From contig CANJRC010000001.1 of assembly GCA_947476535.1 (NCBI GenBank), positions 60,023 through 124,022 on the forward strand: a stretch of 64,000 bases of DNA, in the 5' to 3' direction. The translations under genes and the position numbers were made by a program. The notes beneath the pieces were generated by a model. That model was given only the letters and a program-made list of their open reading frames with translations. It did not search any database and was not told the DNA's origin. The DNA is from Betaproteobacteria bacterium (GTDB lineage: Bacteria > Pseudomonadota > Gammaproteobacteria > Burkholderiales > SG8-39). Below are positions 11,483 through 46,896 of the stretch, in pieces; position 1 is the stretch's first letter, and every line of letters starts with the position of its first letter.

Positions 11483-12238
11483 TTACGACAACGTGAGGCC
11501 ACCGTCCACCACCATGCAGTGGCCGGTGGTGTAGCTCGCCTCATCCGACAGGAGATGGCAGACCGGTGCGGCGATTTCATCGGGCTGGCCGACACGCTGC
11601 ACGCCGAAGTGCTGCGCGTGCAATTGCGCGCCCTTGGACAGGTCGCCCTCGCCGCGCTTGAGCATGTAGGGCTCGGTCATGCCGGTCTGGATGGAACCCG
11701 GCGCGACGATATTGATGCGGATGTTGTGCGGCGCCACATCGGCCGCCACCTGCCGCGACAATTGCAGAATGGCTGCCTTGGCCGCGCCATAAGGCCCATT
11801 GTTCTTCTGCGCCACCAGCGCCGCGACCGACGCCACCGTCACGATGGAGCCGCCGCCCTGCGCCTTCATGATGGGGATCAGGTACTTGAAGCAGAGGAAT
11901 GTTCCATTCAGGTGGATGGCTATCAGCCGCTTGAAGCGGTCGTACGCCCACGTCTCGATCGGGTCGGTCTCGGCGATGCCGGCGGCGGCGAAGCCGCAAT
12001 CGATGCGACCGAAGTGCTTGTGCGCTTCACCCACGACACGGGCCATGCCCGCTTCGTCCGACACATCCACCTGCAGCGCAATCGCCCCCTCCAGTTCTGA
12101 GGCAACCTTCTTGGCGGCATCGCCATTGAAGTCCGCCACGGCGACGCGTCCGCCCTCCCGCGTGAAGCGCTGTGCCACCGCGCGCGCCAGGCCTGAACCG
12201 GCGCCGGTTGCAAACAGTACTTTTCCCTTGTGCCTCAT
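11483..12238 (-). CDS. SDR family oxidoreductase
   Basis: TGAGSGLARA cofactor motif and YGAAK catalytic motif. 251 aa. Confidence 0.85.
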   Translation of the reverse strand: MRHKGKVLFATGAGSGLARAVAQRFTREGGRVAVADFNGDAAKKVASELEGAIALQVDVSDEAGMARVVGEAHKHFGRIDCGFAAAGIAETDPIETWAYDRFKRLIAIHLNGTFLCFKYLIPIMKAQGGGSIVTVASVAALVAQKNNGPYGAAKAAILQLSRQVAADVAPHNIRINIVAPGSIQTGMTEPYMLKRGEGDLSKGAQLHAQHFGVQRVGQPDEIAAPVCHLLSDEASYTTGHCMVVDGGLTLS

Positions 12239-12300
12239 GTCATTTCCTTTGTGTGTTCATTCGCGCACCTGTCGGCGCAGTCCCAGCCTTTGACTCTACA

Positions 12301-12334
12301 GCGCCGCCGAGCCTGCGTAGCAGGCGGCGCGGTC
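12301..12334 (-). repeat. REP-like palindrome, copy 1 (GACCGCGCCGCCTGCTACGCAGGCTCGGCGGCGC on minus strand)
   Basis: Abuts the stop codon (12335-12337) of the upstream SDR gene. It has the same core as the copies at 29855 and 51901. Confidence 0.8.
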
Positions 12335-13090
12335 TTATACGACGGTCTGGCCGCCGTCGATCACCATGCAGTGGCCGGTGGTGTAGGCTGCCTCGTCCGA
12401 CAGCAGGTGGCACACCGGCGCCGCGATTTCGTCCGGCTGGCCGACTCGCCCCATGACGCAGCGCGAGCCGCTCATCGCCGCTCCCTTTGCAAGGTCACCG
12501 TCGCCGCGCTTGGCATACAGCGGCTCGGTCATGTTGGTCTGGATGCTGCCCGGTGCAATGATGTTGATGCGGATATTGTCCGGCGCCACATCGGCCGCCA
12601 CCTGGCGCGACAACTGCAGGATGCCGGCCTTGGCCGCGCCGTAAGGCGCATTGCCGTGCTGGGCGACGAGCGCCGCCACCGAGGCCACCGTGACGATGGC
12701 GCCGCCGCCCTGCCCCTTCATGATCGGGATGATGTACTTGAAGCACAGGAAGGTGCCACCCAGGTGCGTATTGATCATGCGGTTGAAGCGCTCGAGCGAC
12801 CAGTTCTCGATCGGGTCGAAGTCGGCAATGCCGGCAGCAGGGAAGGCACAGTCGATGCGCCCGAATTTCTGGTGCACCTCCTTGACGGCCCTCGCGACCG
12901 CCTCTTCATTGGTGACATCGACCTGGATTGCGATTGCGCCTTCCAGCTCGGAGGCGACCTTCTTGGCTGCTTCGAGGTTGAAGTCCGCCACCGCCACGCG
13001 CCCGCCCTCGCGCGTGAAGCGCTGCGCGACCGCGCGCGCCAGCCCGGAACCGGCGCCAGTTGCAAGCAATGTCTTTCCCTTGTGACGCAT
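12335..13090 (-). CDS. SDR family oxidoreductase, tandem paralog of 11483..12238
   Basis: Same length (251 aa) and collinear sequence (MRHKGK.L.ATGAGSGLARAVAQRFTREGGRVAVADFN...). Confidence 0.85.
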   Translation of the reverse strand: MRHKGKTLLATGAGSGLARAVAQRFTREGGRVAVADFNLEAAKKVASELEGAIAIQVDVTNEEAVARAVKEVHQKFGRIDCAFPAAGIADFDPIENWSLERFNRMINTHLGGTFLCFKYIIPIMKGQGGGAIVTVASVAALVAQHGNAPYGAAKAGILQLSRQVAADVAPDNIRINIIAPGSIQTNMTEPLYAKRGDGDLAKGAAMSGSRCVMGRVGQPDEIAAPVCHLLSDEAAYTTGHCMVIDGGQTVV

Positions 13091-13168: not shown

Positions 13169-14836
13169 TCAACTCGCGCGGGGCTCGCCTTCGACCAGGC
13201 CCGCGACATGCCTCGCCGCCAGCCAGCCGAAGGCCATGGCGCGACTGAGGGAGTAGCCGCTGTTATAGCCGACGCCTGCGGCCGCCCGCGCGGAACTCTC
13301 CCCTACGGCGTACACGCCCTCGATGACGCTGCCATCGGCGCGCTGCACCCGGCCCTCGCCGTCTGCGCGCACGCCGCCAGCGGCGATACCGGTATTGAGA
13401 AGGCGGATGCGCATGCCATGGAATGGGGGCTTTTCCACCGGCGCCATGTTGGGATTGGGCTTCTGGTTCCAGTCGCCGCGAAAGCGCCGCACCGACAGGT
13501 TGGAGCCGCGACTGAAATCGAGGTCCGTGCCCTCGCGCGCCATGGTATTGAATCGTTCTGCCGTTGCGGCAAGCCCTGCGGCATCGATTCCCAGCTTCGC
13601 CGCAAGTTCACCCAGCGTGGGCGCCGAGCTCACCAGCCCCGGCATGTATTCGCCGCCCGGCATAGTGCGGCCAAGACCATACTTCTGGCGGTGGTTCTCG
13701 TCCCAGATCATGAAGATGGGCAAGTTGGCGGGCTTGCCTTGGGCGTCGTGCTTCAAGGCTTCTGCGACGATGGTGGAGTGGAACGAGTCGTCGGCAAAGC
13801 GTCGGCCCTGCCGGTTCACGAGGAAAGTGTGCGGCAGGCAGTGCTCGAAGCAGGCGCGATAGCCGGTATCACCCGGAAACTGCGGCGCATCGAACTTGTA
13901 CCCGGGTAGCACCGGCGCCGCCCATGCGGGCAGCGCGTGAATGTCCCCGCCGAGGGGTTCTACAAGCGTCATGGCATCGCCCGAGATGCCAGGCGGCGTG
14001 ACGCTGCCGCCATCGACGGTCGGGATGCCGGTGAACCTGCCCGAATATTCGCTCGACCAGTCGTGCGAACCGGTAGCGAGGATCACCGGCCCGTGCAATT
14101 CGATGTCGTGGTCGGGCGTGCGGGCGCGCAGTCCGGTCACCTGCCGGCCGTCCCGTGACAAGAGCGCCACGGCTGCCGTGCGCAGCATGAGCTTCACGCG
14201 CCGGTCGAGCACCGCCTTGAAGAGTGCGGCTGCAATGCCGGTGCCGAAGGTGAGGATGTCGTCCTCGCGGCGCTTGGCCACGAGGTCCCAATCCCATTGC
14301 GTCTTGCTCGACATGCCGCCCCACGCGAACATCTCGCCATAGGTGATGCCCACCGGGAAATGCGGGCTGACGTGCAGCAGTGCGCGCGACTCGCCCAACG
14401 CATGCCCGTCGAATGGCGCTCCGGTGAGATAGCGCCCCGCCGCGCGCGAGCCGGGCAGGGTCGGATAGTAATAGTCGGGATAATCAGGGATGACTTCCCA
14501 GCGGATGGCGCCACGCTCCTCCAACCACTGCGCAGCGCCCGCAGCCGCCCGAATCCACCGCTCGCACAAGGCCGAGTCGATGCTGGTGGTATCGCGCTTG
14601 GCCGCTGCGTGCACGTAGTCGAGCGTGGCTGCGACGTTGTCCTCCAGGCCCAGGCGCGCGGCAACGTGATTGGCTCCCGCCCACACCTGCCCGCCCGAAT
14701 AAGCCGCGGCGCCGCCGACCTTGTCGCCTTTCTCGATCAGCGTGACATCGAGCCCGGCTTCCGCCGCGGTGATGGCCGCAGTCATGCCGCCGATGCCGGC
14801 GCCCACGACAATGACAGCACCTCCCTTATGCCCCAT
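13169..14836 (-). CDS. FAD-dependent oxidoreductase (third KstD / fumarate-reductase-like flavoprotein)
   Basis: Start at MGHKGGAVIVVGAGIGGMTAAITAAEAG. GGAAAYSGGQVW motif and C-terminal GVYAVGES. Confidence 0.75.
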   Translation of the reverse strand: MGHKGGAVIVVGAGIGGMTAAITAAEAGLDVTLIEKGDKVGGAAAYSGGQVWAGANHVAARLGLEDNVAATLDYVHAAAKRDTTSIDSALCERWIRAAAGAAQWLEERGAIRWEVIPDYPDYYYPTLPGSRAAGRYLTGAPFDGHALGESRALLHVSPHFPVGITYGEMFAWGGMSSKTQWDWDLVAKRREDDILTFGTGIAAALFKAVLDRRVKLMLRTAAVALLSRDGRQVTGLRARTPDHDIELHGPVILATGSHDWSSEYSGRFTGIPTVDGGSVTPPGISGDAMTLVEPLGGDIHALPAWAAPVLPGYKFDAPQFPGDTGYRACFEHCLPHTFLVNRQGRRFADDSFHSTIVAEALKHDAQGKPANLPIFMIWDENHRQKYGLGRTMPGGEYMPGLVSSAPTLGELAAKLGIDAAGLAATAERFNTMAREGTDLDFSRGSNLSVRRFRGDWNQKPNPNMAPVEKPPFHGMRIRLLNTGIAAGGVRADGEGRVQRADGSVIEGVYAVGESSARAAAGVGYNSGYSLSRAMAFGWLAARHVAGLVEGEPRAS

Positions 14837-15127
14837 GAATGCCGCCCCCCCCTCAAGAAACGCCACCGATTATTATCGAATACTGTCTGTAGTGCGCTTT
14901 GGTTCCAACATTTTCCCGCAAATTATGATCACCGTTTCTGCGCTATTCAGCAACATTCGCCCGGCTCCAGGTACCAGCAGGAGTCGCCGGCGCCAACCCT
15001 GCCAAGTGTAATCCCGGACCGGGCCAGATCCACCCGGAACTGCAACGTGACGATTCTTCGGCCGCCTTAATGTCCCCTTAAGGTTCGCCTGCGAGCATGG
15101 ACGTGTCCAAGCCAATTGGAGGCATCC

Positions 15128-15569: not shown

Positions 15570-16109
15570 ATGAGATGCAACTGCACCGCGCCCCGTCAAA
15601 CCCGTCCCTTGCTCGCCCGCACCGGTGCAATGGTTGCCACTGCCGTCACCGCAGCGGCGCTGCTGCTGGCCACCGCCAATCCCGCCGGAGCGGGCGAGCA
15701 CATCTACGATATCGGCAACAAGACCTACAAGAGCGAGTGCGGCACCTGCCATGTCGCCTATCCGCCGCAACTGCTGCCTGCAGCCTCATTGCGCCTCATC
15801 ATGTCCGGACTGGACAAGCACTTCGGCAGCGACGCGTCCATCGACCCCAAGGCAGCCGAAGAACTGGGGCGATACCTGGCGCAGAACGCCGGCCAGCGGC
15901 GCGGGCTCGAAGGCACGCCGGCGAAAAACCCGGGCGCCGGAATGACTCCACGCATCTCCACCACCCCGTGGTTCATCAAGGAGCACCGCAAGGTGGCTGA
16001 CACCATCCGCAACAACAAGACCATCGGCAATGCAGCCAATTGCGCGGCCTGCCACACGCGCGCCGACAGCGGCGACTACTCCGAGCGCAGCCTCCGTCTG
16101 CCGCGCTGA
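15570..16109 (+). CDS. Diheme cytochrome c (DHC family)
   Basis: AAGGAGG RBS. Two CxxCH motifs (CGTCH, CAACH). Signal-like N-terminus. Confidence 0.75.
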   Translation: MRCNCTAPRQTRPLLARTGAMVATAVTAAALLLATANPAGAGEHIYDIGNKTYKSECGTCHVAYPPQLLPAASLRLIMSGLDKHFGSDASIDPKAAEELGRYLAQNAGQRRGLEGTPAKNPGAGMTPRISTTPWFIKEHRKVADTIRNNKTIGNAANCAACHTRADSGDYSERSLRLPR

Positions 16110-16137
16110 CCCCCGACACACCATGCAGGAGACCACC

Positions 16138-16893
16138 ATGCCCAGCACCATCGCATCCCCCGTGTCGTCAGTACGGGCGCACCCCGAAGCGCCGGCGGCG
16201 CGCGCCCGCACGGCTCCCAGCGTGCTTCCGATGCGCCTGTTGCACTGGCTGCTCGCGGCTGCCTTTGCCGGCGCCTGGCTGACGGCCGAATCCGAACGCT
16301 GGCGAGACACTCACGTTCTGCTCGGGTACACGGTGTTCGGCCTCGTCGCGATGCGCCTGCTGTGGCACTTCGTTGCCGGTCCGCGTGCGCGCATCGTCAG
16401 CCTCATCGCCGGCCCGGTGCGCACCTGGCGCTACGTTAGCGCCCTCCTCACTAGCGCACCCGGGCAGCACATCGGGCACAATGCCATCGGCGCGTGGGCT
16501 ATCGTGCTCGTGATCGCGCTGGCATTCATGACAACGGTGACGGGATACATGACCTTTCAGAACAACGGTGGCGAAATCGTCGCCGACCTGCATGAGATGC
16601 TCGCCACGACGATGCTCTTCGCCGCCATCGCGCACATGGCGTGGATCGTCGGGCGCACTCTGTTGCGCCGCCTTGCGCAGTCCAGCGGAGCCGCCCCAAA
16701 AGCACAGCACGCACCTCGTGGCCACACACCGGATAGCCGGCCCTGGCCGCGTCGCCTCGCGGCCGCAGCGCTCGTGGCGGGTGTGGCGGCATTCTGGGCG
16801 CTGGCCCTGCACGGCGACCTGCCGGGACTGTACGGATCGGAGGCAAGTGCAACGACAATCCGCCAGGACTCGCGAAGCAAGCATGACGACTGA
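16138..16893 (+). CDS. Membrane cytochrome b (Ni/Fe-hydrogenase b-type / cytochrome b561-like)
   Basis: AGGAGA lies 6 nt before ATG 16138 (alternative ATG at 16123). RLLHWLLA and HNAIGAW histidine-bearing transmembrane helices. Confidence 0.7.
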   Translation: MPSTIASPVSSVRAHPEAPAARARTAPSVLPMRLLHWLLAAAFAGAWLTAESERWRDTHVLLGYTVFGLVAMRLLWHFVAGPRARIVSLIAGPVRTWRYVSALLTSAPGQHIGHNAIGAWAIVLVIALAFMTTVTGYMTFQNNGGEIVADLHEMLATTMLFAAIAHMAWIVGRTLLRRLAQSSGAAPKAQHAPRGHTPDSRPWPRRLAAAALVAGVAAFWALALHGDLPGLYGSEASATTIRQDSRSKHDD

Positions 16894-16914
16894 GCGCGAC
16901 CTCCGGCAGCCGCC

Positions 16915-17637
16915 ATGCGCGTCCTGATCGTCGAGGACGACGCCATGATGGGGCGTGCCACGCAGGCGGGCCTGGGCGAGCTGGGATTCGCCGCCGACTG
17001 GGTGCGCGACGGCGTGCAGGCCGACGCCGCCGTGCTGGCGACCCGCTTCGCCGCGCTGGTGCTGGACCTCGGCCTTCCGCGGCTCCCGGGCCTGGATCTG
17101 CTCAAGCGCATGCGTGCGCGCGGAGACCGCACGCCGGTGCTGGTGCTCACGGCGCGCGACGCCATCGGTGACCGCATCAAAGGTCTGGATACGGGCGCCG
17201 ATGACTACATGATCAAGCCATTTGACCTGCATGAACTCGCTGCACGCCTGCGCGCGCTGGTGCGCCGGGCCAACGGCGAAGCCGCACCGGTCATCGTTGC
17301 CGCCGGCGTTACGCTGGACCCGGCGACGCGCGCCGTGCAGTTTGCCGGGAACGCGGTGGAGCTTTCCGGCCGCGAGTTCGATGTGCTGCGCGAACTGATG
17401 CTGGCCGCGGGGCGCGTGCTCTCGCGCGACCAGATCGTTGAGCGCGTCTACACGGCGCAGGAGGAAGTGGAGAGCAATGCAATCGAAGTGCATGTGCACC
17501 ATCTGCGCCGCAAACTTGCGCCGGACCTCATCCGCACGCTGCGTGGCGTGGGCTACCTGTTCCGGCGAGAGGCAGCCGATCGAGATTGCCCGGGGGGCAG
17601 CCCAGGGAGAATCCCGGACGGAAAACGCACGCCATGA
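16915..17637 (+). CDS. OmpR/PhoB-family response regulator
   Basis: MRVLIVEDD receiver domain with DLGLP and DDYMIKPF. Winged-helix C-terminus ending RTLRGVGY. Confidence 0.9.
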   Translation: MRVLIVEDDAMMGRATQAGLGELGFAADWVRDGVQADAAVLATRFAALVLDLGLPRLPGLDLLKRMRARGDRTPVLVLTARDAIGDRIKGLDTGADDYMIKPFDLHELAARLRALVRRANGEAAPVIVAAGVTLDPATRAVQFAGNAVELSGREFDVLRELMLAAGRVLSRDQIVERVYTAQEEVESNAIEVHVHHLRRKLAPDLIRTLRGVGYLFRREAADRDCPGGSPGRIPDGKRTP

Positions 17638-19040
17638 CTGCCCACCCGATCGCCCCCGGCCATGCATCCTTGCGGCGACGCCTGATGGCGCTGCTGCTCG
17701 GCGTGACCGCCACTGCATGGGTGATTACCAGCGTCATCGGCTACCAGGGTGCACGTCACGAGGCCGAGGAAATTCTCGACGCGCATCTTGCGCAGACCGC
17801 GGCGCTATTGATCGCACAACCTGGCGGTGAGCTGGAGGAAATCGACACGGAACATGCCCCCGCACTGCATCGCTACAGCACCAAGGTCGCATTCCAGGTC
17901 TGGGAGCACGGGACAAGGCTGCGCCTGCACTCGGCCAATGCGCCGGACACCCCGCTGTCCAAAGTCCGGGACGGCTTCAGCTCCACCGTGTATGGCGGAA
18001 CGGAATGGCGTGCGTTCAGCGCCTGGGACAGGCGACGCGAGACGCTGGTGCAAGTGGCCGAACGGCAGGACTCCCGCGACGAGATTGCCGGGGCCTTGGC
18101 ATGGGGATTGGCGACCTCGCTCATGCTGGTGCTGCCCTTTCTCGGGGCCGCCGTGTGGCTCGCGATCGGCGAGGGTCTTCGCCCGCTGCACTTCCTTCAG
18201 AAGGAACTGGCGCGCCGCGGACCGGCGCATCTGCAGCCACTGCCTCACAACGGCGTACCAGCCGAAGTGCTGCCACTAGTAGACGAACTGAACCGCCTGT
18301 TCGCCCGAATCGACGCCCTGATCACGCGCGAGCGGCGCTTCACCGCCGACGCCGCACACGAACTGCGCACGCCACTCGCCGTGCTGCAACTCCAGGCACA
18401 GGTGGCGAACACGGCGGCGGCCAACGATGTTCGCCGAGAAGCGCTTGATGGCCTGATCGCCGGCACAGCGCGCGCCACGCGGCTGGTCGAACAGCTGCTG
18501 ACCCTGGCGCGATTGGAGGCGTCGTCGGCGACCTTCGAACCTGCAATGGCCGCGAATTGCGACCTTCGCGAAATAGTGCGCATGGAAGCGGCAACCCTGG
18601 CTCCCCAGGCACTCGAGCGCGGCATCGACATCGAGTTTGCCGGCAGTGAAAAGGTCACGGTCGCGGGACAGCCAGAGCTACTGGCCATCCTCGCCCGCAA
18701 CCTGATCGACAATGCGGTGCGCTATTCGCCCGCCAATGGAATGGTCATGCTGAGTGTCGATGCCGGAGAGGGCGGCGGCCCCAGCTTCACCGTCAGCAAT
18801 GCCGGCAACGCACTATCCGAGGAGGAGCGACAGCGACTGGGTGAGCGTTTTTACCGCCCGGCGGGAACCGACGCGCCCGGTAGCGGCATTGGCGTATCAA
18901 TCGTCGCGAGAATCGCCCAACTGCACGGCGGCAGCGTTGAGTTTCTGCCGGGGCCAGGAGGTTCCGGACTGCGAGTGCATGTCAAGCTCCCGCAGCGAGA
19001 ACCTGCAGGGGGCAACCCGGAATGCGCATCGTGCTCTTAG
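17634..19040 (+). CDS. Sensor histidine kinase (QseC/PmrB-like architecture)
   Basis: ATGA overlap with the response-regulator stop. Two TM segments, H-box FTADAAHELRTPL, N-box NLIDNAVRYS, and a G-box (GSGIGVSIV). Confidence 0.85.
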   Translation: MTAHPIAPGHASLRRRLMALLLGVTATAWVITSVIGYQGARHEAEEILDAHLAQTAALLIAQPGGELEEIDTEHAPALHRYSTKVAFQVWEHGTRLRLHSANAPDTPLSKVRDGFSSTVYGGTEWRAFSAWDRRRETLVQVAERQDSRDEIAGALAWGLATSLMLVLPFLGAAVWLAIGEGLRPLHFLQKELARRGPAHLQPLPHNGVPAEVLPLVDELNRLFARIDALITRERRFTADAAHELRTPLAVLQLQAQVANTAAANDVRREALDGLIAGTARATRLVEQLLTLARLEASSATFEPAMAANCDLREIVRMEAATLAPQALERGIDIEFAGSEKVTVAGQPELLAILARNLIDNAVRYSPANGMVMLSVDAGEGGGPSFTVSNAGNALSEEERQRLGERFYRPAGTDAPGSGIGVSIVARIAQLHGGSVEFLPGPGGSGLRVHVKLPQREPAGGNPECASCS

Positions 19041-24586: not shown

Positions 24587-26854
24587 TTACCTGACTATTT
24601 CCGCGGCCGCGCCATCGGGGCGCGCCGCGGTGATTTCACCGATCACCGCCGCCTCGCCGTATCCCGCCGCGCGCAATTGCGCGAGCGCATCCGGTACATC
24701 CTTTGCGTCGAACGCAAGCAACAGGCCCCCCGCCGTCTGCGGGTCGTAGATCAACTGCAATCGCGGATCGTCCCGCAAGCCGGGATCAACTGCCAGCGCC
24801 CGCGCCATACGCGCGTTTTCCGGATGGAAGGTACTGCGTTCGCCCCGCGCCAGCAGGGCCAGCGCACCGGGCAGCGCCGGCAATGCATCGACATGAATGC
24901 GCGCCGACACGCTGCCGCCGCCCAGCATAGACACGAGGTGCCCCGCAAGACCGAAGCCGGTGATGTCGGTGGCGGCCCTCGCCGCCCCCGCCACGCTTCG
25001 CGCGGCGCCATTGCCCCGCAACATCGAGGCCAGCGCCGCTTCGATCCATGGTCCGCGCGCCCTGCCCGCCATATCAGCGTGGAACAGCACGCCGGTGCCG
25101 AGCGCGCGCGTCAGCACCAGTTGCTGCCCTACCGCCAGCGCGCCGCGCCGCCTCGCAAGCACCGCGCCGGCGGCGCTGACACCCTGCACGCTGAACCCCA
25201 CCTCGAGGTCCATGGACTTGCTGGTATGGCCGCCCAAAAGGCGCACGCCTCGCGCATCGAACACCGCGCGCGCACCGGCCAGCACCTGGTACAACACCTC
25301 CTCGCCCTCCTCTTCGTCGGCAGCCAACGGAATGGCCACCAGCGCCTGCGCCCAGCGCGGCGTAACACCCTTGGCATCCAGGTCCGACAGCGCGTTCTCG
25401 GCCGCAATCCGGCCCACGAGATATGGGTCGTCGGTAAAGCCGCGAAAGAAATCCACCGACACCACCATCACGCTGCCGCCGGCGGCGCCTGCGTCAATCC
25501 GGTAAGCAGCCACATCGTCCGCCTCGTCCAGCCCGAGCACCACTTCCGGCGCCGCGGGCGGCGCATCGAGGCGCGCCAGCGCGCGCTCCAGCGCCGACTG
25601 GCCGAGCTTTGCGGCGCAGCCGCCGCACACGATATCCATCCCCGCCGGCATCGCAGGCAGCATGCGCACGGCCGGCCCGTCGCTGCCATCCGCCTCGAGC
25701 AACTGGAAGCCGCGCATGAACTTGCGGTCGATGCGGTCCTTCCAGCGCATCGCCCAGCGACCTTCGAAGGAAAACCCCTTCTTGACGCCGATCGCCGTTC
25801 CATCGCCCAGGTTGAGCAGCGTGAGAAAATCCGGCTGCGGCCGGTAACTTCGCAGCGCCTCGCGAAGCAGCGTGGCGCGCAGGTTATCTGCCAGATAAGG
25901 TCCCTCGCGCACCGCATACACGCCGGCCTTCGGCGTATCCGGATAGTCCACCAGCGCGGCGCAGTCGCCCACCGCGAAGAGATCGTCATGCCCGACCACC
26001 TGCAGCGTCGATCGCGTCAGCACAAAACCGCGCGCATCGGTAGGGAGTCCCGAGTCGGCGAATAGGGAGTGCGATGCCGCCCCGGTCGACCACACGAGCG
26101 CATCGCAATCCAGCACGGAGCCGTCATCCAGCGTGATGCTGTCGGCGCGCGCGCTGGCAACCTTGCGCTGCGTGACAAGCTGCACGCCGCGGCTCCCCAA
26201 CGCGCGCGCCACCCGATCGCCGATCGAGTTGCCGTAGCCGGGCAGCAATTGCGTCCCGGCATGCACCATGGTGATGTGCGCACGCACGCCCTTGGCTTTC
26301 AGGCGCGCATCGAAACAGCAGGCCAGTTCCACCCCGCCCGCGCCGCCACCGGCAATGACGAGGCGCAATGCGCGCGCCCCGCCCAGCGCCGCGGCCAACG
26401 CATCCACTTGCGCGACGCGAGCAGTGAAGCGCCCGATCGGTCGCGTCGACAAGGCGTGCTCCGAGACACCGGGCAACTCCAGTCCCATCACCGTAGACCC
26501 GATGTTGATCGACGCCACATCGTATTTCAGCGCCGACCGGCCCTCGACATGCACACACCGCGCGGCGGGGTCGATGCGCAGGGCCTTGCCGAACACCACG
26601 CGCGCGCCGGCACGGCGCGCCAGCGGCAACGGATCGATCTCGAGTTCCTCCGCGCGGTACTGGCCGGCCACATATCCCGGCACCATCCCTGAGTACACGG
26701 CAACGGGTCGGTCAATAATCAGCGTGACGCGGCAATGGGACGGGCGCTGCATCAGGAACGAGCGCAGCACCTGCACGTGGGCGTGCCCCGCCCCGATAAG
26801 GAGAAGATCGCGGACCTTGGGGGCTGGACTCCGATCAATGGCAACGGTGTTCAT
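24587..26854 (-). CDS. selD: Bifunctional FAD/NAD(P)-binding pyridine-nucleotide-disulfide oxidoreductase :: selenide,water dikinase (SelD)
   Basis: The N-terminal ~370 aa carry LLLIGAGHAH and VIAGGGAGGVE dinucleotide folds. The C-terminal ~350 aa begin with the SelD active-site-like motif VCGGCAAK (Cys413/Lys416) and have AIR-synthase-like domains. Confidence 0.8.
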   Translation of the reverse strand: MNTVAIDRSPAPKVRDLLLIGAGHAHVQVLRSFLMQRPSHCRVTLIIDRPVAVYSGMVPGYVAGQYRAEELEIDPLPLARRAGARVVFGKALRIDPAARCVHVEGRSALKYDVASINIGSTVMGLELPGVSEHALSTRPIGRFTARVAQVDALAAALGGARALRLVIAGGGAGGVELACCFDARLKAKGVRAHITMVHAGTQLLPGYGNSIGDRVARALGSRGVQLVTQRKVASARADSITLDDGSVLDCDALVWSTGAASHSLFADSGLPTDARGFVLTRSTLQVVGHDDLFAVGDCAALVDYPDTPKAGVYAVREGPYLADNLRATLLREALRSYRPQPDFLTLLNLGDGTAIGVKKGFSFEGRWAMRWKDRIDRKFMRGFQLLEADGSDGPAVRMLPAMPAGMDIVCGGCAAKLGQSALERALARLDAPPAAPEVVLGLDEADDVAAYRIDAGAAGGSVMVVSVDFFRGFTDDPYLVGRIAAENALSDLDAKGVTPRWAQALVAIPLAADEEEGEEVLYQVLAGARAVFDARGVRLLGGHTSKSMDLEVGFSVQGVSAAGAVLARRRGALAVGQQLVLTRALGTGVLFHADMAGRARGPWIEAALASMLRGNGAARSVAGAARAATDITGFGLAGHLVSMLGGGSVSARIHVDALPALPGALALLARGERSTFHPENARMARALAVDPGLRDDPRLQLIYDPQTAGGLLLAFDAKDVPDALAQLRAAGYGEAAVIGEITAARPDGAAAEIVR

Positions 26855-27123
26855 AGGTCGGCAATACTAGCGCACCCGCGCGCCGCCTCCGCCAAAACCC
26901 TTGAATTGGCGCGATTGGCCTCCGGATCGAGTATTTCCACGGCATCCGGACCAAGAACCCGCGCCTCTGCCCGCCCTCCTTGCGCGCGCATATGGCCAGC
27001 GACCAAAATAGTCGGCAACCGATCCACCGCACTGTAATAAAATCAACCCCACTGCCATGGGCGAAACAGCGGGCATCTCCGAGGTTTCATCTCCGCCCAA
27101 TCGAGGCCATTCCGGGGGAATTC

Positions 27124-27771
27124 ATGCTGTTTGCCAAACTGCTGCCGGTCGACGGCAACTTCTTCAAGCTGTTCAACCAGCACGCCGCCTACATCGAGGA
27201 GTCGGCAAAGGCCCTCTCCCTGCTGGTCGCCAACTATGACGACTTGAACCTGCGCGAGCAGTACACCAAGGCCATCGACGACGCGGAACATGCCGCCGAC
27301 CGCCTCACCCAGGAGGTCAACCGCCTCTTGCACAAGACCTTCATCACGCCGATCGACCGCGACCAGATCCACTCGCTGATCAACACCATGGACGATGTGG
27401 CGGACCTGATCCAGGACTGCGCCGAGGCCATGAGCCTGTACGGCGTGCACGAAATCACGGTGGAAGTGTCGCGCCTCACCGAATTGAGCCTGAAATGCTG
27501 CCAGCGCCTGCGCCATGCTGTGTCGCTGATTCCCGACGTCGCCAAGCCTGCAACGGCGGAGGCGGCGCTGAAAACCTGCGAGGAAATCGACCAGCTCGAG
27601 TCCGACGCTGACCGGGTCATGCGCGCGGCCATGAGCAAGCTGTTTCGCGACGAGCCGGACGTGCGCGAAGTCATCAAGCTCAAGGCGATCTACGAACTGC
27701 TGGAGACCATCACCGACAAGGTCGAGGATGTCGCCAACCTGATCGAGGGCATCGTCCTCGAGAACTCGTAA
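27124..27771 (+). CDS. DUF47 (PhoU-like, Pit accessory) protein
   Basis: MLFAKLLPVDGNFFKLF N-terminus and four-helix repeat pattern. Sits immediately upstream of the Pit transporter. Confidence 0.85.
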   Translation: MLFAKLLPVDGNFFKLFNQHAAYIEESAKALSLLVANYDDLNLREQYTKAIDDAEHAADRLTQEVNRLLHKTFITPIDRDQIHSLINTMDDVADLIQDCAEAMSLYGVHEITVEVSRLTELSLKCCQRLRHAVSLIPDVAKPATAEAALKTCEEIDQLESDADRVMRAAMSKLFRDEPDVREVIKLKAIYELLETITDKVEDVANLIEGIVLENS

Positions 27772-27780
27772 GCCAGCCGC

Positions 27781-28791
27781 ATGAGCTCGGTCCAGGTTGC
27801 GCTGTGGGTGGTGGTGCTGCTCGTCGTGGTGGCGCTGGTGTTCGATTTCATGAACGGGTTTCACGATGCCGCCAACTCCATAGCCACAGTGGTGTCGACG
27901 GGCGTGCTGCGCCCGGGCCAGGCGGTGCTGCTCGCTGCGGCCTTCAACTTCATTGCCGTGTTCATCTTTCACCTGAGCGTCGCGGCCACCGTGGGAAAGG
28001 GCATCATAGAAACCAGCGTCGTCGACACGCACGTGGTGTTCGGCGCCCTGATCGGGGCGATCGCCTGGAACCTGGTCACCTGGTACTACGGCATTCCGAG
28101 CAGTTCCTCGCATGCGCTGATCGGCGGCCTCGTGGGCGCGGCGATTGCAAAGGCCGGCGCGGGCTCGCTGGTTGCAACCGGCATCTGGCGCACCGTGGCC
28201 TTCATTTTCGTGTCCCCCTTTCTCGGCTTCCTCCTCGGCTCGCTAATGATGATCGCAGTGTCCTGGATCTGCCGCGGCATGTCGCCATCGAGGGTGGATC
28301 GCTGGTTCAGGCGCCTGCAACTGGTCTCGGCGAGCGCCTACAGCCTCGGCCATGGCGGCAATGACGCGCAAAAAACCATCGGCATCATCTGGATGCTGCT
28401 GATTGCCAGCGGCCATGCTGCGGCTGGAGACGCCTTGCCCCCCACCTGGACCATCGTCGCCTGCTACATCGCCATCGCCATGGGCACCATGTTCGGCGGC
28501 TGGCGCATCGTCAAGACCATGGGCCAGAGAATTACCCGGCTCAAGCCCGTGGGCGGTTTCTGCGCCGAGACCGGCGGTGCCATCACCTTGTTCCTGGCCA
28601 CGGCGATGGGCATTCCAGTGTCCACCACCCACACCATCACCGGTGCCATCGTCGGCGTAGGTGCGACACGTCGCGCCAGCGCCGTGCGCTGGGGGGTAGC
28701 CGGCGGCATCGTGTGGGCGTGGATCTTCACCATCCCTGCGAGCGCCTTCGTCGCCGCCGTTGCCTACGGGTTGAGCCTCGCCGTCTTCTGA
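27781..28791 (+). CDS. pit: Inorganic phosphate transporter, PiT family
   Basis: FDFMNGFHDAANSIAT and GHGGNDAQKTIG signature repeats. 336 aa. Confidence 0.9.
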   Translation: MSSVQVALWVVVLLVVVALVFDFMNGFHDAANSIATVVSTGVLRPGQAVLLAAAFNFIAVFIFHLSVAATVGKGIIETSVVDTHVVFGALIGAIAWNLVTWYYGIPSSSSHALIGGLVGAAIAKAGAGSLVATGIWRTVAFIFVSPFLGFLLGSLMMIAVSWICRGMSPSRVDRWFRRLQLVSASAYSLGHGGNDAQKTIGIIWMLLIASGHAAAGDALPPTWTIVACYIAIAMGTMFGGWRIVKTMGQRITRLKPVGGFCAETGGAITLFLATAMGIPVSTTHTITGAIVGVGATRRASAVRWGVAGGIVWAWIFTIPASAFVAAVAYGLSLAVF

Positions 28792-33798: not shown

Positions 33799-35418
33799 TT
33801 ATGATGACAATTGTGCCACCGGCAGCGGCGGCAGCCCGAGAATCATGTCGGCGGCCTTCTCGCCGATCATGATCGCGGACGCATTGGTGTTGCCACCGGG
33901 CACGGTCGGCATGATGGAAGCATCGGCCACACGCAGGCCTTCCACGCCATGCACCCGAAGCTGCGCATCAACCACCGCAGCGCGTTCATCGCGCCCCATG
34001 GCGCAGCTCCCCACCAGGTGATAGGCCGTGCCGCTCGTGCGGCGCACGTAGTTCGCAAGCGCAGCATCGTCGTGAACCGCCGGCCCCGGCAACACCTCCG
34101 GCCCACGCACCGGGTCCCAGGCTTTCTGCGCCAGCAGTTTGCGCCCGAGCTTCATCGCCGTGACCATCAGGTCGAGGTCTTCGGACTCGCGCCAGTAGGC
34201 CGGGTCGATCATGGGCGCGGCGTCCGCGCCCGGCCCCGTGAGCCCGATGCGCCCGCGCCCCTTGGGACGCATGAGGATGGGGATGATGCTGTAGCCCTGC
34301 CCCTTGCCGGTCGGGTTGGCCGGCGTGCGGTTGTTGGGATAGAGCGCGAACAACAGGTCCGGCCGATCGAGGTCATCGCGCGAGCGCACGTAGCCGCAGG
34401 CATGCCCAACGTTGTTGGCAAACACACCGGTGCGAAGGAACAGGTACTTGAACACCTGCAGGGCGCCCCAAGGCAGGCGCGACAACGACAGGCCATAAGG
34501 CAATGACGAATCAGAGGCATGGTTGATCAGGCACGTGTAATGATCCTGCACATTGCCGCCCACGCCGGGCAGCGCGTGCAACACGGCAATGCCGAAGCGC
34601 GCGAGTTCTTCGGGATTGCCGATGCCCGAGCGCATCAGCATCAGAGGCGAGCCGACGGCGCCGCCTGCAAGCACGACTTCGCGCTGGGCAACGATCCGGC
34701 GCCGGGCGCCCGCTTGCACGACGACCACGCCGTTGGCGCGCCGCCCCTCGAACGCCACCGTGTCCGCAAGGCAATCGGTCAGCACCGTCAGGTTCTTGCG
34801 ATGCATCACGGGCTTGAGGAATGCCACCGCGGTGGACTGCCGGCGCCCACGCCAGATGGTGGCCTGCCGCCTGCCGAATCCCTCCTGCTCCTCGCCGTTC
34901 ATGTCCAGGTTGACCCGCCAGCCGGCGCTGAGCGCCGCATCGAACATCATGTCCGTCAGCGGTGAGTACGACTCCACATTGCCCACGCGCAAGGGGCCGT
35001 GGGTGCCGTGGTACGGGCCGCCGTGCTGGGCGTTGGTCTCGCTGCGATTGAAGTACGGCAGCACCTCGCGATACGACCAGCCGGGATTGCCGGCGGCGGC
35101 CCAGTCGTCGAAGTCCAGGCGATGGCCGCGCAGGTACACCATGCCGTTGATGGCGCTGGTTCCGCCCAGTGTCCTGCCGCGCGGCGTGTAGACCTGCCGC
35201 CCCGCGGCATGCGCCTGTTGCACGGTGGAAAAGCGCCAGTTGTAGGTGCGGTGCTGCATCAACGGCAGGATGCCCAGCGGCACGTGGATAAGCGGGCTGT
35301 TGTCGGGCGGACCTGCCTCGATGAGGCACACACTGTTGTTGGCATCGGCCGACAGGCGGTTGGCGAGCACACAACCGGCCGAGCCGGCGCCGACGATCAC
35401 GTAATCGAATGCCTGCAT
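33799..35418 (-). CDS. GMC family oxidoreductase (choline-dehydrogenase-like)
   Basis: [32 protein letters not shown], and C-terminal HLVGSCAMG...VADASIMP. Confidence 0.9.
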
Positions 35419-35432
35419 GGCGTCCCCTTTCA

Positions 35433-37064
35433 CTATGCCTCGATGGGCGCGAGCGCCGGGCGCCCCAGCACCATGTCGGCAGCCTTCTCGCCGATCATGA
35501 TTGCGGGCGCATTGGTGTTGCCGCCGATGATGCGCGGCATGATGGAGGCATCGGCCACCCTGAGCCCCTCGACCCCGCGCACGCGCAACTGGTTATCCAC
35601 CACCGCATCGTCACCCTGCCCCATGCGGCAGGTGCCCACCGGATGGAAGGCCGTGGCGCAACGATTACGCGCGTAGGCCTCAAGCGCTGCGTCGTCGCGA
35701 ACGCCCTCGCCGGGAAGGATCTCCGGGCCGCGCACCGGATCGAAAGCCGGGTCGGCGAGCATTTGGCGCGCGAGCTTCATGCCGTGCACCACGAGATCGA
35801 CGTCGGCGCGCGCACTGAGGAACTGCGGGTCGATCACGGGCGCTGCCAGCGGGTCGGCGCTCGCGATGGTGACGCGCCCGTGACTCTCGGGCCGCAGCAG
35901 CAGCACGATGATGCCGTAGCCATGCCCCTTGGCATTGGGGTTCTCCGGCGTGCGTCCGGCGGGCAGCAGGATGAACTGCAGGTCGGGACGATCGAGGTCG
36001 GGGCGCGAGCGAATGAAGCCGCCCGCATGCAGGATATTGTTGGCGAAGGCGCCGCTGCGCACAAACAAGTACTTGAGCACCTGCCCACCAAGCCAGGGCA
36101 GCTTCGCCGCTGTCAGCCCGTACGGGATCGTCGACTCGGTGACGTGGCCCACCTGCGTGATGAGGTGGTCCTGCAGGTTGCGGCCGACGCCAGGCAGATC
36201 GACCACGCTCGCAATGCCCAGGCGCGCGAGTTCTGCCGCCTCGCCGATGCCCGAGCGCAGCAGGATCGCCGGCGACGCGTAGGTGCCGCCGGCGAGGATG
36301 ATTTCGCGCCGCGCACGGATATGCCGACCGGCTTGCCGACCTCGGCTGCCCGTAGTCGCGTCGATCACGTCGATGCTCACGGCGCGCCGGCCCTCGAACA
36401 CGATCTTGTCGACGAGCACGCCGTTCTTCACCACGAGGTTCGGCCGCTGCAGCACTGGCCGCAGAAATGCGATGGACGTGGAATGCCGGCGCCCGCGCTT
36501 GATGGTGGCCTGGCGCCGGGAAAAGCCCTCCTGCGCCGCGCCGTTGAAGTCCTCGATCACCGGGTAGCCCATGCGCCGGGCCGCGGCGAACATCATGTCC
36601 ATCAGCGGCGAATACGATTCCACGTCGCACACGTTGAGCGGCCCGCCCTTGCCGTGATAGGGCGCGCCGAATTTCTCGTTGTGCTCGCTTCGAAGGAAAT
36701 ACGGCAGCACCTCGCGATACGACCAGCCCGGGTTGGCCGCCGCCGCCCACTCGTCGTAGTCGCCGCGGTGGCCACGCATGTACACCATGCCGTTGATGGA
36801 ACTGGTGCCGCCCAGGGTTTTTCCGCGCGGCGCATAGATGGACCGGTCGGCCGTGCCCGGCTGCGGCACAGTGTTGAAACACCAATTGAGCAGCGGGTGC
36901 GTCATCAGCGGCAGCATGCCCAGCGGCACGTGGATTAGCGGGCTCGTGTCCGGAGGTCCCGCTTCGAGCAGGCACACCCGGGTATTCGGGTCAGCCGACA
37001 GCCGGTTGGCGAGCACGCAGCCCGCCGAGCCCGCGCCCACAATCACATAATCGAAATCATCCAT
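35433..37064 (-). CDS. GMC family oxidoreductase, tandem paralog
   Basis: [23 protein letters not shown]. Collinear with 33799..35418. Confidence 0.9.
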   Translation of the reverse strand: MDDFDYVIVGAGSAGCVLANRLSADPNTRVCLLEAGPPDTSPLIHVPLGMLPLMTHPLLNWCFNTVPQPGTADRSIYAPRGKTLGGTSSINGMVYMRGHRGDYDEWAAAANPGWSYREVLPYFLRSEHNEKFGAPYHGKGGPLNVCDVESYSPLMDMMFAAARRMGYPVIEDFNGAAQEGFSRRQATIKRGRRHSTSIAFLRPVLQRPNLVVKNGVLVDKIVFEGRRAVSIDVIDATTGSRGRQAGRHIRARREIILAGGTYASPAILLRSGIGEAAELARLGIASVVDLPGVGRNLQDHLITQVGHVTESTIPYGLTAAKLPWLGGQVLKYLFVRSGAFANNILHAGGFIRSRPDLDRPDLQFILLPAGRTPENPNAKGHGYGIIVLLLRPESHGRVTIASADPLAAPVIDPQFLSARADVDLVVHGMKLARQMLADPAFDPVRGPEILPGEGVRDDAALEAYARNRCATAFHPVGTCRMGQGDDAVVDNQLRVRGVEGLRVADASIMPRIIGGNTNAPAIMIGEKAADMVLGRPALAPIEA

Positions 37065-39132: not shown

Positions 39133-39708
39133 TTACTTCGGGGACGCCTTGCCGAAGCGGCCGACGAAGGCCACGAGCTCGATATCGCGCAGCACGCTCA
39201 GGTTCTTCTCTGCGGCGAAGGCCTCTGCCTGCGGCGAGAGCTCACCCGCCGTCACGAAGATGCCGGCGCGCACATCACCTGACTCACGCGCCGACTGCAG
39301 CTCGCGCAGCGGCGCGACGCCTGCCTGGGTCACCTTCCAGCGCCGGCAGGCCACCAGCGTCACGTAACCCTGCTTGCGCAATTCCATGTCGACCGCGCCG
39401 CCGCGGGTCGCTGTCACCTCGTAGCCCTCGCGACGAAAGCCATCGGCGACCAGCGCCGAGAACTCGTCCCAGGACATGCCGCGCAGGTGTGCGAGCGTGG
39501 CCTCCACGCGCGCGGCCCCGGGCACCTTCATCTGCCGCCAGGCGCCGTAGATCGCGAGCGCCAGCCACGGAAAGGTGGACGCGGCCGCTGCCAGCGACGG
39601 CAGGAACAGGCGCGAGGCGAAGAAGAGACCCACCGCAATCAACAGGCTCGCCCACCAGGGCGAGCGCAGCAGGATGGAGAACAGTGAATCCTTGTGAGGC
39701 TTGAACAT
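39133..39708 (-). CDS. Membrane-anchored restriction-endonuclease-like (Mrr_cat) protein
   Basis: Two N-terminal TM helices followed by FEALV-type core (SWDEFSALVADGFRREGYEV...VDMEL...VACRRWK), the PD-(D/E)xK Mrr catalytic pattern. Confidence 0.65.
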   Translation of the reverse strand: MFKPHKDSLFSILLRSPWWASLLIAVGLFFASRLFLPSLAAAASTFPWLALAIYGAWRQMKVPGAARVEATLAHLRGMSWDEFSALVADGFRREGYEVTATRGGAVDMELRKQGYVTLVACRRWKVTQAGVAPLRELQSARESGDVRAGIFVTAGELSPQAEAFAAEKNLSVLRDIELVAFVGRFGKASPK

Positions 39709-39775: not shown

Positions 39776-40732
39776 CTACTCCGCCTTGTAACCGGTGGCG
39801 CGAATTGCGTCCGTCCAGAAGCGCACTTCCGCCTCGTACTGCTTCATCTGCTCTTCAGGCGTGGTGCCGAGCGCTTCGCCACCCGACGATTTGCGGATCT
39901 GCTCGACGATGGCCGGCGTCCTGACCGCTGCCGCCGCCTCGGCGGAAAGCTTGGCAATGATGTCGCGCGGCGTGCCCAGCGGTGCCCACAGTCCATAGTA
40001 GGCGGGCACCTCGAAATTCGGCAGCCCGACTTCCGGTGCGGCGGGCACGTCCGGCACGACCGCCACGCGCTTGGTGGCGAGCGCGAACAGGGCACGCACC
40101 TTGCCCGCCTGCAATTGGGCGGTGTAGGTCTGCGCCGATCCCATGCCCAGGTCCACTTCGCCGGAGAGCAGCGCGATCATGACCTGGGGACTGGACTTGT
40201 AGGGAATGCTGCGCGACTCGAAGCCCGCGCGATCGCCGAGAACCTTCATCGGAATGTCGACGATGGCGGCCGGCGAACCATGCTTGAGGCTGCCCGGGTT
40301 CGCCTTCGAATAGGCCACCAGTTCCTGCAGCGTGGTCACCGGGAGCGAAGACCGCACGACCAGGACCCATGGCGTGGACACCAACTGGGATACGGGCAGG
40401 AGGTCCTTGCCCGCATCCACCGCGTTCTCGCGCACGAACAGCGAATGGCTCTGCATCACGAGGCTGTAGAACAGCGTGTAGCCATCGGGCGAAGCACCGA
40501 CCACGGCCTTGGCGCCGATCCGCGAATTGGCGCCGGGCCGGTTCTCGACGATCACCGGCTGGCCCATGCGGCGCGTCAGCTCCTCGGCCACCGGCCGGAT
40601 GGTGACATCCACCACGGAGGCCGGCGGATTGCCGATGATGATGCGTACGGGCCTCGAGGGGTAGGTCTGCGCGAGCGCAGTGCCCGCCGACATGGCCACA
40701 GCAATCAGTGCCGCCGAAACAAGCGTCTTCAT
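39776..40732 (-). CDS. Bug-family (TctC-like) tripartite tricarboxylate transporter substrate-binding protein
   Basis: GGAGGAGG RBS. Signal peptide, then QTYPSRPVRIIIGNPPAS (Bug N-terminal signature). 318 aa. Confidence 0.88.
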   Translation of the reverse strand: MKTLVSAALIAVAMSAGTALAQTYPSRPVRIIIGNPPASVVDVTIRPVAEELTRRMGQPVIVENRPGANSRIGAKAVVGASPDGYTLFYSLVMQSHSLFVRENAVDAGKDLLPVSQLVSTPWVLVVRSSLPVTTLQELVAYSKANPGSLKHGSPAAIVDIPMKVLGDRAGFESRSIPYKSSPQVMIALLSGEVDLGMGSAQTYTAQLQAGKVRALFALATKRVAVVPDVPAAPEVGLPNFEVPAYYGLWAPLGTPRDIIAKLSAEAAAAVRTPAIVEQIRKSSGGEALGTTPEEQMKQYEAEVRFWTDAIRATGYKAE

Positions 40733-40883
40733 CTTGACCTCCTCCAGGGTTGCGACGCTCCCATCATATCCGGCGAGCATCGCCATCGCCACAGGATTTG
40801 CACTGCATCGCGTCATTGACTGCACCCCAACCGGTCTGCACAATCGGGCACCGCCCCACACCTTGGGGATGAGGAGAACCGCC

Positions 40884-42515
40884 ATGAAATTCGTGCTTCC
40901 CGTCGCCCCCATGCCGGTGTCGCAGGCTCGCCCGGCGCCACGCCCGCAACCGGGCAAACGGCTCAAAGTCGGCCTCCTGCACAACGGCAAGCCCAACGGC
41001 GACGCCATCATCCAGTCGGTGTTCGACGCGCTTGCCGTGCGCGGGATCGCGGCCGACTCGGTGTCGCATTCGAAGCCGCAGGCGGGCGAGCCGCTCTCGG
41101 CGGCCATGCTGGAGGAACTGAAGCACTGCGACCTGGTGGTCACTGCGCTGGCCAATTGAGGGGCCTGCACGTCGTGGAGTGTCCACGACAGCGTACAGAT
41201 CGAAAAAGCCGGTGTGCCCACGCTCACCTTTGTCACCGACGCGTTCGTCCCGCTAGCCGAGCGCGTCTCGGCAAGCCTCGACCTGCCGATGCCGCTCCTG
41301 CGCACGCAGGTGCTGCCGCATGCCATCTCCAGCGAAGAACGCAGCGCCGCCTACGAGGCGATGGCCGGGTACCAGGACAGCATCGAACAGGCGATCTTCG
41401 CACCGGTCGCCGCCGACGCCGCAGCAGATGGAGCGACGGCGGCAGCGCCAGCAAATGCGCCACTCGAACGCATCGAGATCGACGGTGACGAGGAGGCAGT
41501 AGCAGACCTCTACCGCAGCCGCGGCTGGCTGGACGGCCTGCCCATCGTGCCGCCCACGGAAGCCCGCGTCGAGCGCATGCTCGGGCCGCTCGCATCGCAG
41601 CGCCAGCGCCAGCTCGGGAAAGTGCCACCCAAGGGCCGGCCGCTGACGTTGGAGAGCCTTGCCGTGTGCGCTGTCCTGGCCGGCTGCGCGCCTGCAACCT
41701 TCCCGGTGGTGGTGGCCGCCGCGCGCGCCATGCTGCGGCCCGAATTCAACCTGCTCGGCATCAACACCACCACCAACGCCGCGGCACCGCTGCTGATCGC
41801 GAGCGGCCCCATCGCGAATGCGGTCGGCATCCAGGGTGGCAACGATGTGTTCGGCGCATTTCACCGCGCCAATATCACCATCGGCCGCGCGATGCGCCTC
41901 ATGATGATCGCGGTGGGCGACTGCCGCCCCGGCGACGGGGACATGGCCACCCAGGGCCAGGGCATGAAGGCCGGCATCTGCATCACCGAAAACACCTCGC
42001 CCTGGGAGCACCTGCACGTGGAGCTGGGCTGCCGAGCCGATGAAAGCACCGTGGCCGCAATCTCGGTGACGGCGCAGTTCAACCTGCTCGACTTCGCCAG
42101 CCGCAATGCCGATGACCTCTTGGGCATGATCGCGCGCACCATCTCGACGCCGGGCATGCAGAATGCGCAACTCGGCTACGGACCGGTGATCGTGTTCGGC
42201 ATCGAGCACGCGCGCATCCTCGCCGCGGCCGGCCTCACCAAGGCGGACGTCAAGCGCCGCCTCTTCGAGGAAGCCCGGCTGCCGCTCTCGGCCTTCAGCC
42301 CGGAGACGGTGGACGACGTGCTCAAGGTGCGCAGGCCGCAATGGGCCTTTGCCGAGCGCAACCCGTCGGGCGTGGTGCCCATGGCCGATGCACCCGGCGA
42401 CTTCACGCTGCTCGTGGCAGGCGGCGAAGGCCAGCACAGCGTGCTGTTGCCGACGTTCCTCGCGCCGCGGCCTGTGCTGGTGAAGGTGGGGAAGGACGGC
42501 CTCGGGGGCGAGTGA
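40884..42515 (+). CDS. Candidate selenoprotein P1: U-G-A-C redox module fused to a large uncharacterised domain (UGA 41157-41159 read as Sec, codon 92)
   Basis: ORFs 40680..41159 and 41214..42515 are in one frame and separated only by a TGA. GAGGAG lies 7 nt before ATG 40884. A paralog on the opposite strand has a TGA at the homologous site. A hairpin starts 11 nt after the TGA. Confidence 0.7.
41171..41189 (+). promoter_or_regulatory. Candidate bacterial SECIS hairpin for P1
   Basis: GTCGTGG-AGUGU-CCACGAC (7-8 bp stem). It begins 11 nt after the last base of UGA 41157-41159. Confidence 0.6.
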
Positions 42516-46832: not shown

Positions 46833-46896
46833 GATGCCCTCCTCCACAGACAAACTCATGGCCATCAAGCCTAGCCGACGATGGCGCCTTGCCCCT

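Follow-up and report, generated by a model that had tools for sequence, protein, structure and literature searches.

The stretch of DNA analysed here (the window) comprises 64,000 nucleotides of a Betaproteobacteria bacterium (assembly GCA_947476535.1, contig CANJRC010000001.1, positions 60,023 to 124,022 of the forward strand) and carries a gene predicted to encode an Ndh-SelD fusion, in which a flavoprotein oxidoreductase domain precedes a selenophosphate synthetase (SelD). The 755-residue open reading frame (ORF) described in the first-pass annotation is real and begins with ATG; the earlier description had omitted only its strand, which is minus. Its GC content at third codon positions (GC3) was 0.80, which is coding-like, in a window of ~65% GC. 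An RND efflux permease gene ending at 24571 lies downstream and is convergent with it, and a promoter scan around the gene found no sigma-70-like promoter. Pfam domains follow in the order Pyr_redox_2 (residues 16–318, 3e-34) with a nested Pyr_redox, AIRS (446–553, 3e-13) and AIRS_C (620–744, 9e-13). All three motifs quoted earlier for the protein were found in the translation, the last of them, VCGGCAAK, at residues 409–416. Approximately 14 kb from the fusion gene lie two convergent genes with in-frame TGA codons, here called P1 and P2 (Table 1).

Table 1. Features of the Ndh-SelD fusion gene and of the two UGSC-family genes, in window coordinates.
Feature	Residues	Coordinates	Strand	Evidence
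Complete Ndh-SelD fusion gene	1–755	24587..26854	-	ORF list; Pfam and NCBIfam matches; full-length homologues at 53–99% identity
Stop codon of fusion gene (TGA/TAA-type)		24587–24589	-	After 755 codons
FAD/NAD(P)H two-dinucleotide-fold oxidoreductase domain, NDH-2-like fold	16–383	25706..26809	-	TIGR03169, Pyr_redox_2, Foldseek
First dinucleotide-binding motif LLLIGAGHAH, presumed FAD site	17–26	26777..26806	-	Translation; conserved in 24-homologue alignment
Second dinucleotide-binding motif VIAGGGAGGVE, presumed NAD(P)H site	166–176	26327..26359	-	Translation; Pyr_redox 164–238
Inter-domain linker	384–409	25628..25705	-	Variable in 24-homologue alignment; pLDDT low from residue 404
SelD (selenide, water dikinase) domain, AIRS + AIRS_C	410–755	24590..25627	-	TIGR00476; PDB 3u0o; Foldseek
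SelD active-site loop CGGCAAK	C410-G-G-C413-A-A-K416	25607..25627	-	Aligned to 3u0o and 2yye; invariant in 24-homologue alignment
P1, UGSC-family candidate selenoprotein with unclassified ~380-residue domain		40869..42515	+	TGA 41157–41159, ALAN-U-GACTSW
P2, UGSC-family candidate selenoprotein, paralogue of P1		42538..44310	-	TGA 43969–43971, GIAG-U-GSCTP

The C-terminal half matched the NCBIfam equivalog model for SelD (TIGR00476) at 234.9 bits against a cutoff of 125 (1e-69; residues 410–718). Searches against PDB sequences returned E. coli SelD (3u0o) at 1.5e-36 together with Aquifex SelD (2yye), and Foldseek placed this half at template-modelling (TM) scores of 0.75–0.81 to SelD structures. 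The AIR-synthase-like domains that had been placed after VCGGCAAK correspond to AIRS and AIRS_C. A ThiL/PurM relative, which the first-pass annotation had named, along with a failure of SelD models, as an outcome that would speak against its assignment, was rejected: the thiL model TIGR01379 scored 51 bits (cutoff 184) against 235 bits for the SelD model, and the assignment survived. In HMMER alignments to 3u0o, C413 falls on E. coli C17 and K416 on K20, exactly the Cys-x-x-Lys spacing that had been claimed, and the catalytic position is Cys rather than selenocysteine (Sec), again as first described. D447, D468, N487, D491 and D630 align with E. coli D51, D68, N87, D91 and D227, which we take to be metal and ATP ligands, and all five are invariant in an alignment of 24 homologues (52–93% identity). 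Stand-alone SelD proteins (E. coli 3u0o; Aquifex aeolicus 2yye/2zod) have the same AIRS/AIRS_C fold as the fusion, a mobile, glycine-rich N-terminal loop that carries Cys/Sec-x-x-Lys, and Asp and Asn ligands for metal and ATP; the fusion differs in bearing a 400-residue flavoprotein extension and an extra cysteine, C410, which makes a fusion-specific CxxC. At this position, -3 relative to the catalytic residue, A. aeolicus SelD has Ser and E. coli SelD presumably Gly. The loop and its neighbourhood were then followed across 80 loci from a genome scan, from which ~1,160 ORFs were clustered. The pattern C-x-G-C-x-x-K was present in 80/80 loci, at identities down to 38%, and a stop codon at the catalytic position in 0/80, indicating that the family is uniformly Cys-type.

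The N-terminal half was also well placed. The NCBIfam model TIGR03169 (Nterm_to_SelD) matched residues 16–383 over its whole length (1–365) at 386.6 bits against a cutoff of 310 (1e-115), so that both halves pass a curated model; with the Pyr_redox_2 match and both nucleotide-binding motifs, this bears out the two-dinucleotide-fold oxidoreductase that had been proposed. The first motif, GAGHAH (residues 21–26), reads GxGxxH and not GxGxxG, and its His is conserved across the 24 homologues. The second includes GGGAGG at 169–174, with G169, G171, G174 and E176 invariant. PDB sequence matches for this half were type II NADH dehydrogenases (NDH-2) and FSP1/AIF-type flavoproteins. With Foldseek, the closest structure was the NDH-2 of Caldalkalibacillus thermarum (4nwz), at a TM score of 0.84 over ~385 residues, most of the C-terminal region included; the score to sulfide:quinone oxidoreductase (SQR, 3sz0) was 0.76. 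The domain thus shares with both enzymes the two-Rossmann-fold flavoprotein architecture, but its identity to them is just 17–23% (21–23% for NDH-2), its first motif is GxGxxH, the catalytic cysteines of SQR are not conserved, and its C-terminus runs into SelD, with no terminal membrane anchor.

An AlphaFold2 model of the whole protein, built on the 24-sequence alignment, had a mean predicted local distance difference test (pLDDT) score of 86 and a predicted TM score (pTM) of 0.87. The sole notable disorder lay at residues 404–418, which hold the active-site loop; crystal structures of SelD have a mobile N-terminal loop, and the disorder in the model fits this. Foldseek returned no PDB entry spanning both halves.

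Proteins of this kind are abundant. At E <= 1e-10 at least 2,784 relatives were found in the protein database, and the top 120 shared one four-domain Pfam string and were ~750 residues long, many of them labelled 'selenide, water dikinase'. The identical protein occurred only on metagenome contigs and in one metagenome-assembled genome (MAG), GCA_947474265.1. Among GTDB species representatives 594 fusion stretches were confirmed, with a best match of 63% identity, and the fusion was kept across at least eight phyla; the groups represented were Acidobacteriota, Myxococcota, Gemmatimonadota, Methylomirabilota, Planctomycetota, Alpha- and Gammaproteobacteria, Spirochaetales and Dehalococcoidia. 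The first-pass annotation was right that this is a known family. In 2008 Zhang et al. drew attention to the Ndh-SelD fusion and proposed that the substrate of SelD is produced by its COG1252 oxidoreductase (PMC2432076). In ocean metagenomes, Zhang and Gladyshev (2008) found Ndh-SelD fusions in the hundreds, amounting to ~40% of Cys-type SelDs, with CxxC in all Ndh-SelD fusions and in <5% of single-domain SelDs (PMC2398784); the protein described here carries it as C410-G-G-C413. Mariotti et al. (2015) reported Ndh-SelD as by far the commonest SelD fusion, always Cys-type and found in genomes with both selenoproteins and the machinery for Sec (PMC4561486), and NCBI keeps dedicated models for it. 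The window's copy has the domain order, the Cys-type CxxC loop and the ~750-residue length of the published fusions, passes both curated models and differs from them in nothing substantive, being at most 63% identical to any GTDB species representative matched. As its domain architecture, its CxxC motif and the role proposed for the oxidoreductase have all been published, the gene is an ordinary, already known feature.

Unsupervised clustering of the flanking ORFs revealed no generally conserved neighbour of the fusion, since no neighbour family occurred in more than eight of the 80 loci. Targeted probes (tblastn with E. coli SelA, SelB and SelU; ARAGORN for tRNA-Sec) identified selenium-trait genes near the fusion in 13 of the 80, against ~1 expected by chance on a rough estimate. 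In six Halieaceae-type loci (L069, L074, L076, L079, L080 and L081) selU lies directly upstream on the same strand; selA adjoins the fusion in one locus (L070) and tRNA-Sec in another (L068); selA or selB lies less than 10 kb away in four (L038, L048, L051 and L060); and in one (L067) selA, selB and tRNA-Sec form a single cluster with the fusion. This linkage independently supports a role for the fusion family in providing selenophosphate to both Sec and selenouridine traits. The L067 cluster, on the Alphaproteobacteria MAG contig CBDDPY010000002.1 (1110–12223), runs in a single direction from selA and selB to tRNA-Sec (8132–8227), with Ndh-SelD last. Between tRNA-Sec and Ndh-SelD are an ORF homologous to the C-terminal domain of P1 and P2 (8192–9385) and then a stand-alone UGSC gene with a TGA at 9712. 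The UGSC and 'Unknown_1' parts are thus separate genes there, in an order opposite to that in P1 and P2.

P1 and P2 themselves were the two convincing results of a scan of the window for in-frame TGA codons flanked by coding-like GC3, and they agree with the UGA-containing genes reported earlier 14 kb from the fusion. Other read-through candidates (the same-frame ORF pairs 29839/31180, 35433/37092 and 46897/48937, and others) were rejected as their junctions were TAG or normal gene ends. Both proteins passed Pfam UGSC (PF24696; 118 bits for P1, 58 bits for P2) and both matched NF041046, 'UGSC family (seleno)protein' (104 bits for P1). Each TGA falls exactly at the U of the UGSC motif (U-x-x-C), and GC3 stays coding-like for hundreds of codons beyond it. 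The ~380-residue C-terminal domains matched no Pfam or NCBIfam family; each gene is probably an example of the UGSC::'Unknown_1' fusion reported in 2008 (PMC2398784). After the TGA, both transcripts could form a hairpin with GU in the apical loop (+15 to +33 in P1, with G23 and U24; +15 to +32 in P2). We take G23 and U24 of P1 to occupy the same positions as in the Sec insertion sequence (SECIS) of E. coli fdhF. The L067 UGSC gene has its TGA at the same position as P1 and P2 and a similar hairpin (z = -1.95). Considered together, P1 and P2, their hairpins and this parallel make it likely that the organism decodes UGA as Sec, and P1 is likely to be a consumer of selenophosphate through Sec-tRNA. 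Gene callers would truncate both genes. Elsewhere in the window, family scans of ~50 genes found no yqeB/yqeC-like or sen-like gene and no Rfam family was found, and P1 and P2 alone in the window point to the Sec trait; the ~4 kb of contig examined past the 3' end of the window contained no selenium genes.

These data support the idea that the gene product is a bifunctional Ndh-SelD enzyme with a Cys-type selenophosphate synthetase, a reading to which we assign a probability of roughly 0.85; our confidence in the details of coupling between reductase and SelD is lower than that in the identity of the enzyme. By homology, the SelD domain would use ATP and reduced selenium to form selenophosphate, and the organism in all likelihood makes this compound. 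The NDH-2-like flavoprotein domain would draw on NAD(P)H and FAD to provide reducing equivalents, the target of which could be an oxidised selenium species, or else a selenium adduct or disulfide on C410-x-x-C413 of the mobile loop. Selenide would then be made or released at the kinase active site, and not as free toxic selenide, and the resulting selenophosphate would serve the organism's selenium traits, presumably including at least Sec insertion into the two UGSC proteins. Within this scheme the identities of the domains, the catalytic residues and the linkage to selenium genes in relatives are demonstrated, while we infer how the reductase is linked to SelD, which electron donor it uses and which form of selenium is the real substrate. 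We tentatively suggest, at odds somewhat short of even, that the flavoprotein half and C410-x-x-C413 constitute a self-contained device for selenium reduction and channelling, in which a selenium adduct on Cys would be reduced at the expense of NAD(P)H within the active site of SelD. As a weaker addition, prompted by the L067 cluster and by the position of P1 and P2 near selD, the UGSC proteins may be actors in selenium handling and not mere clients.

Several observations weigh against an Ndh-SelD enzyme working in this way. The stricter SelD model NF002098 was not reached (176 bits against a cutoff of 299). The window contains no tRNA gene detectable with ARAGORN, tRNA-Sec (selC) included, and tblastn with the E. 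coli queries recovered no SelA, SelB or SelU homologue; with the Rfam result, this upholds the earlier statement that selA, selB and tRNA-Sec are missing from the window. Folding energy did not set the P1 and P2 hairpins apart from shuffled sequence (z = -0.6 and +0.45); only their position and loop GU fit a SECIS, which amounts to consistency, not proof. The oxidoreductase half lacks a conserved redox-active Cys pair, C298 (in the GDC FAD motif) being its only invariant Cys, and nearly the whole NDH-2 fold is kept, on which structural grounds the domain may have a quinone-linked role. Finally, the searchable literature yielded no biochemical characterisation of any Ndh-SelD fusion, TIGR03169 or TIGR04369 protein, and the coupling mechanism is for that reason a conjecture.

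Three other explanations were weighed (a non-SelD paralogue, a selenouridine- or cofactor-only role with P1 and P2 as pseudogenes, or an uncoupled respiratory NDH-2), all of which appear unlikely. That the C-terminal half is a SelD look-alike incapable of selenophosphate synthesis, either a member of TIGR04369 ('oxidoreductase/SelD-related fusion protein', fusion_not_SelD) or a sulfur-activating enzyme, seems very improbable. TIGR04369 has the same two-domain layout, aligns over the full length (residues 19–726) and gave numerically the highest bit score, 406.2, and some archaea have SelD-like proteins with proposed sulfur roles (PMC13188914). This score is nevertheless far below the cutoff of 700, which indicates that the protein is no member of that family, whereas the TIGR00476 and TIGR03169 cutoffs were passed; all SelD catalytic residues are invariant, and the family is operon-linked to selU, selA, selB and tRNA-Sec. 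The second explanation accepts a genuine SelD but has it mainly serve a non-Sec trait, such as 2-selenouridine in tRNA, a selenium-molybdenum cofactor or selenoneine, with the TGAs of P1 and P2 as true stops or pseudogene lesions. It would account for the missing selA, selB and tRNA-Sec, for the hairpin energies and for the Halieaceae-type relatives that pair the fusion with a selU operon and not with Sec genes. We nonetheless regard it as improbable, as both TGAs stand at the U of the UGSC motif with coding-like sequence beyond, both proteins pass Pfam UGSC, the L067 homologue has its TGA at the same position near selA, selB and tRNA-Sec, and both hairpins have the canonical spacing and an apical GU; moreover, selenium traits are not mutually exclusive.

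Doubtful to a similar degree is the proposal that the N-terminal domain does the work of an ordinary respiratory NDH-2 or quinone reductase and is fused to SelD with no functional coupling. Both the structural matches to respiratory NDH-2, which extend through most of the C-terminal region, and the lack of a redox-active Cys pair are in its favour. Against it, the domain has a subfamily of its own (TIGR03169), the fusion has been maintained in at least eight phyla, with 594 genome matches, a CxxC specific to the fusion has co-evolved in the SelD loop, and the high pTM suggests a fixed arrangement of the domains. The bifunctional Ndh-SelD enzyme is the reading that we retain.

Further genes of the window were also noted. 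Divergent from the selD fusion are a DUF47/PhoU_div gene (27067–27771, +) and a PiT-family (PHO4) permease gene (27781–28791, +), a pair conserved in three contigs of the same species (L001, L002 and L004). The possibility that this pair is a selenite or phosphate importer tied to SelD was rejected as a family-level association, as it was absent from the flanks of 80/80 distant loci. Between 5725 and 14866 (-) are three paralogous FAD_binding_2 flavoproteins of ~560 residues (5725–7401, 7445–9142 and 13169–14866), interleaved with two SDR genes (11483–13090) and solute-binding proteins in what looks like a catabolic cluster. The region 15570–19040 encodes a dihaem cytochrome c (15570–16109), a QseB/PmrA-like response regulator (16915–17637) and a sensor kinase (17586–19040); on one same-species contig (L001) the dihaem cytochrome c block also has DUF1924 and a Ni_hydr_CYTB cytochrome b. 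Tandem genes for GMC-family (choline-dehydrogenase-like) oxidoreductases occupy 33799–37064 (-), overlapping by one base (33799–35433 and 35433–37064), and both proteins scored just under the NF002550 cutoff. Just upstream of the P1/P2 region, among unannotated ORFs, is a small protein with an Mrr_cat restriction-endonuclease domain (39133–39708, -). Multiple TctC/Bug-family periplasmic receptors are present, for example at 39776–41326 (-) and 45846–46907 (-), such receptors being typical of Burkholderiales, so that their number in this high-GC bacterium suggests that order; the longest ORF of the former overlaps the P1 start region, and its true start is probably further downstream.

Standard pipelines would annotate this gene as SelD, and the copy described here adds nothing new on selenium hand-over. 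According to a 2026 review, the in vivo selenium donor for SelD is still unresolved (PMC13188914). If true, the channelling device, the core idea of which was proposed in 2008, would answer this long-open question of what brings selenium to SelD in vivo, and because the Ndh-SelD family is abundant, any member could be a test case for selenium reduction and hand-over. For the genome itself, the fusion together with two UGSC genes carrying in-frame TGA codons is a warning to annotators that UGA may be selenocysteine, and the fusion gene is a reliable marker of selenium use by this uncultured bacterium.

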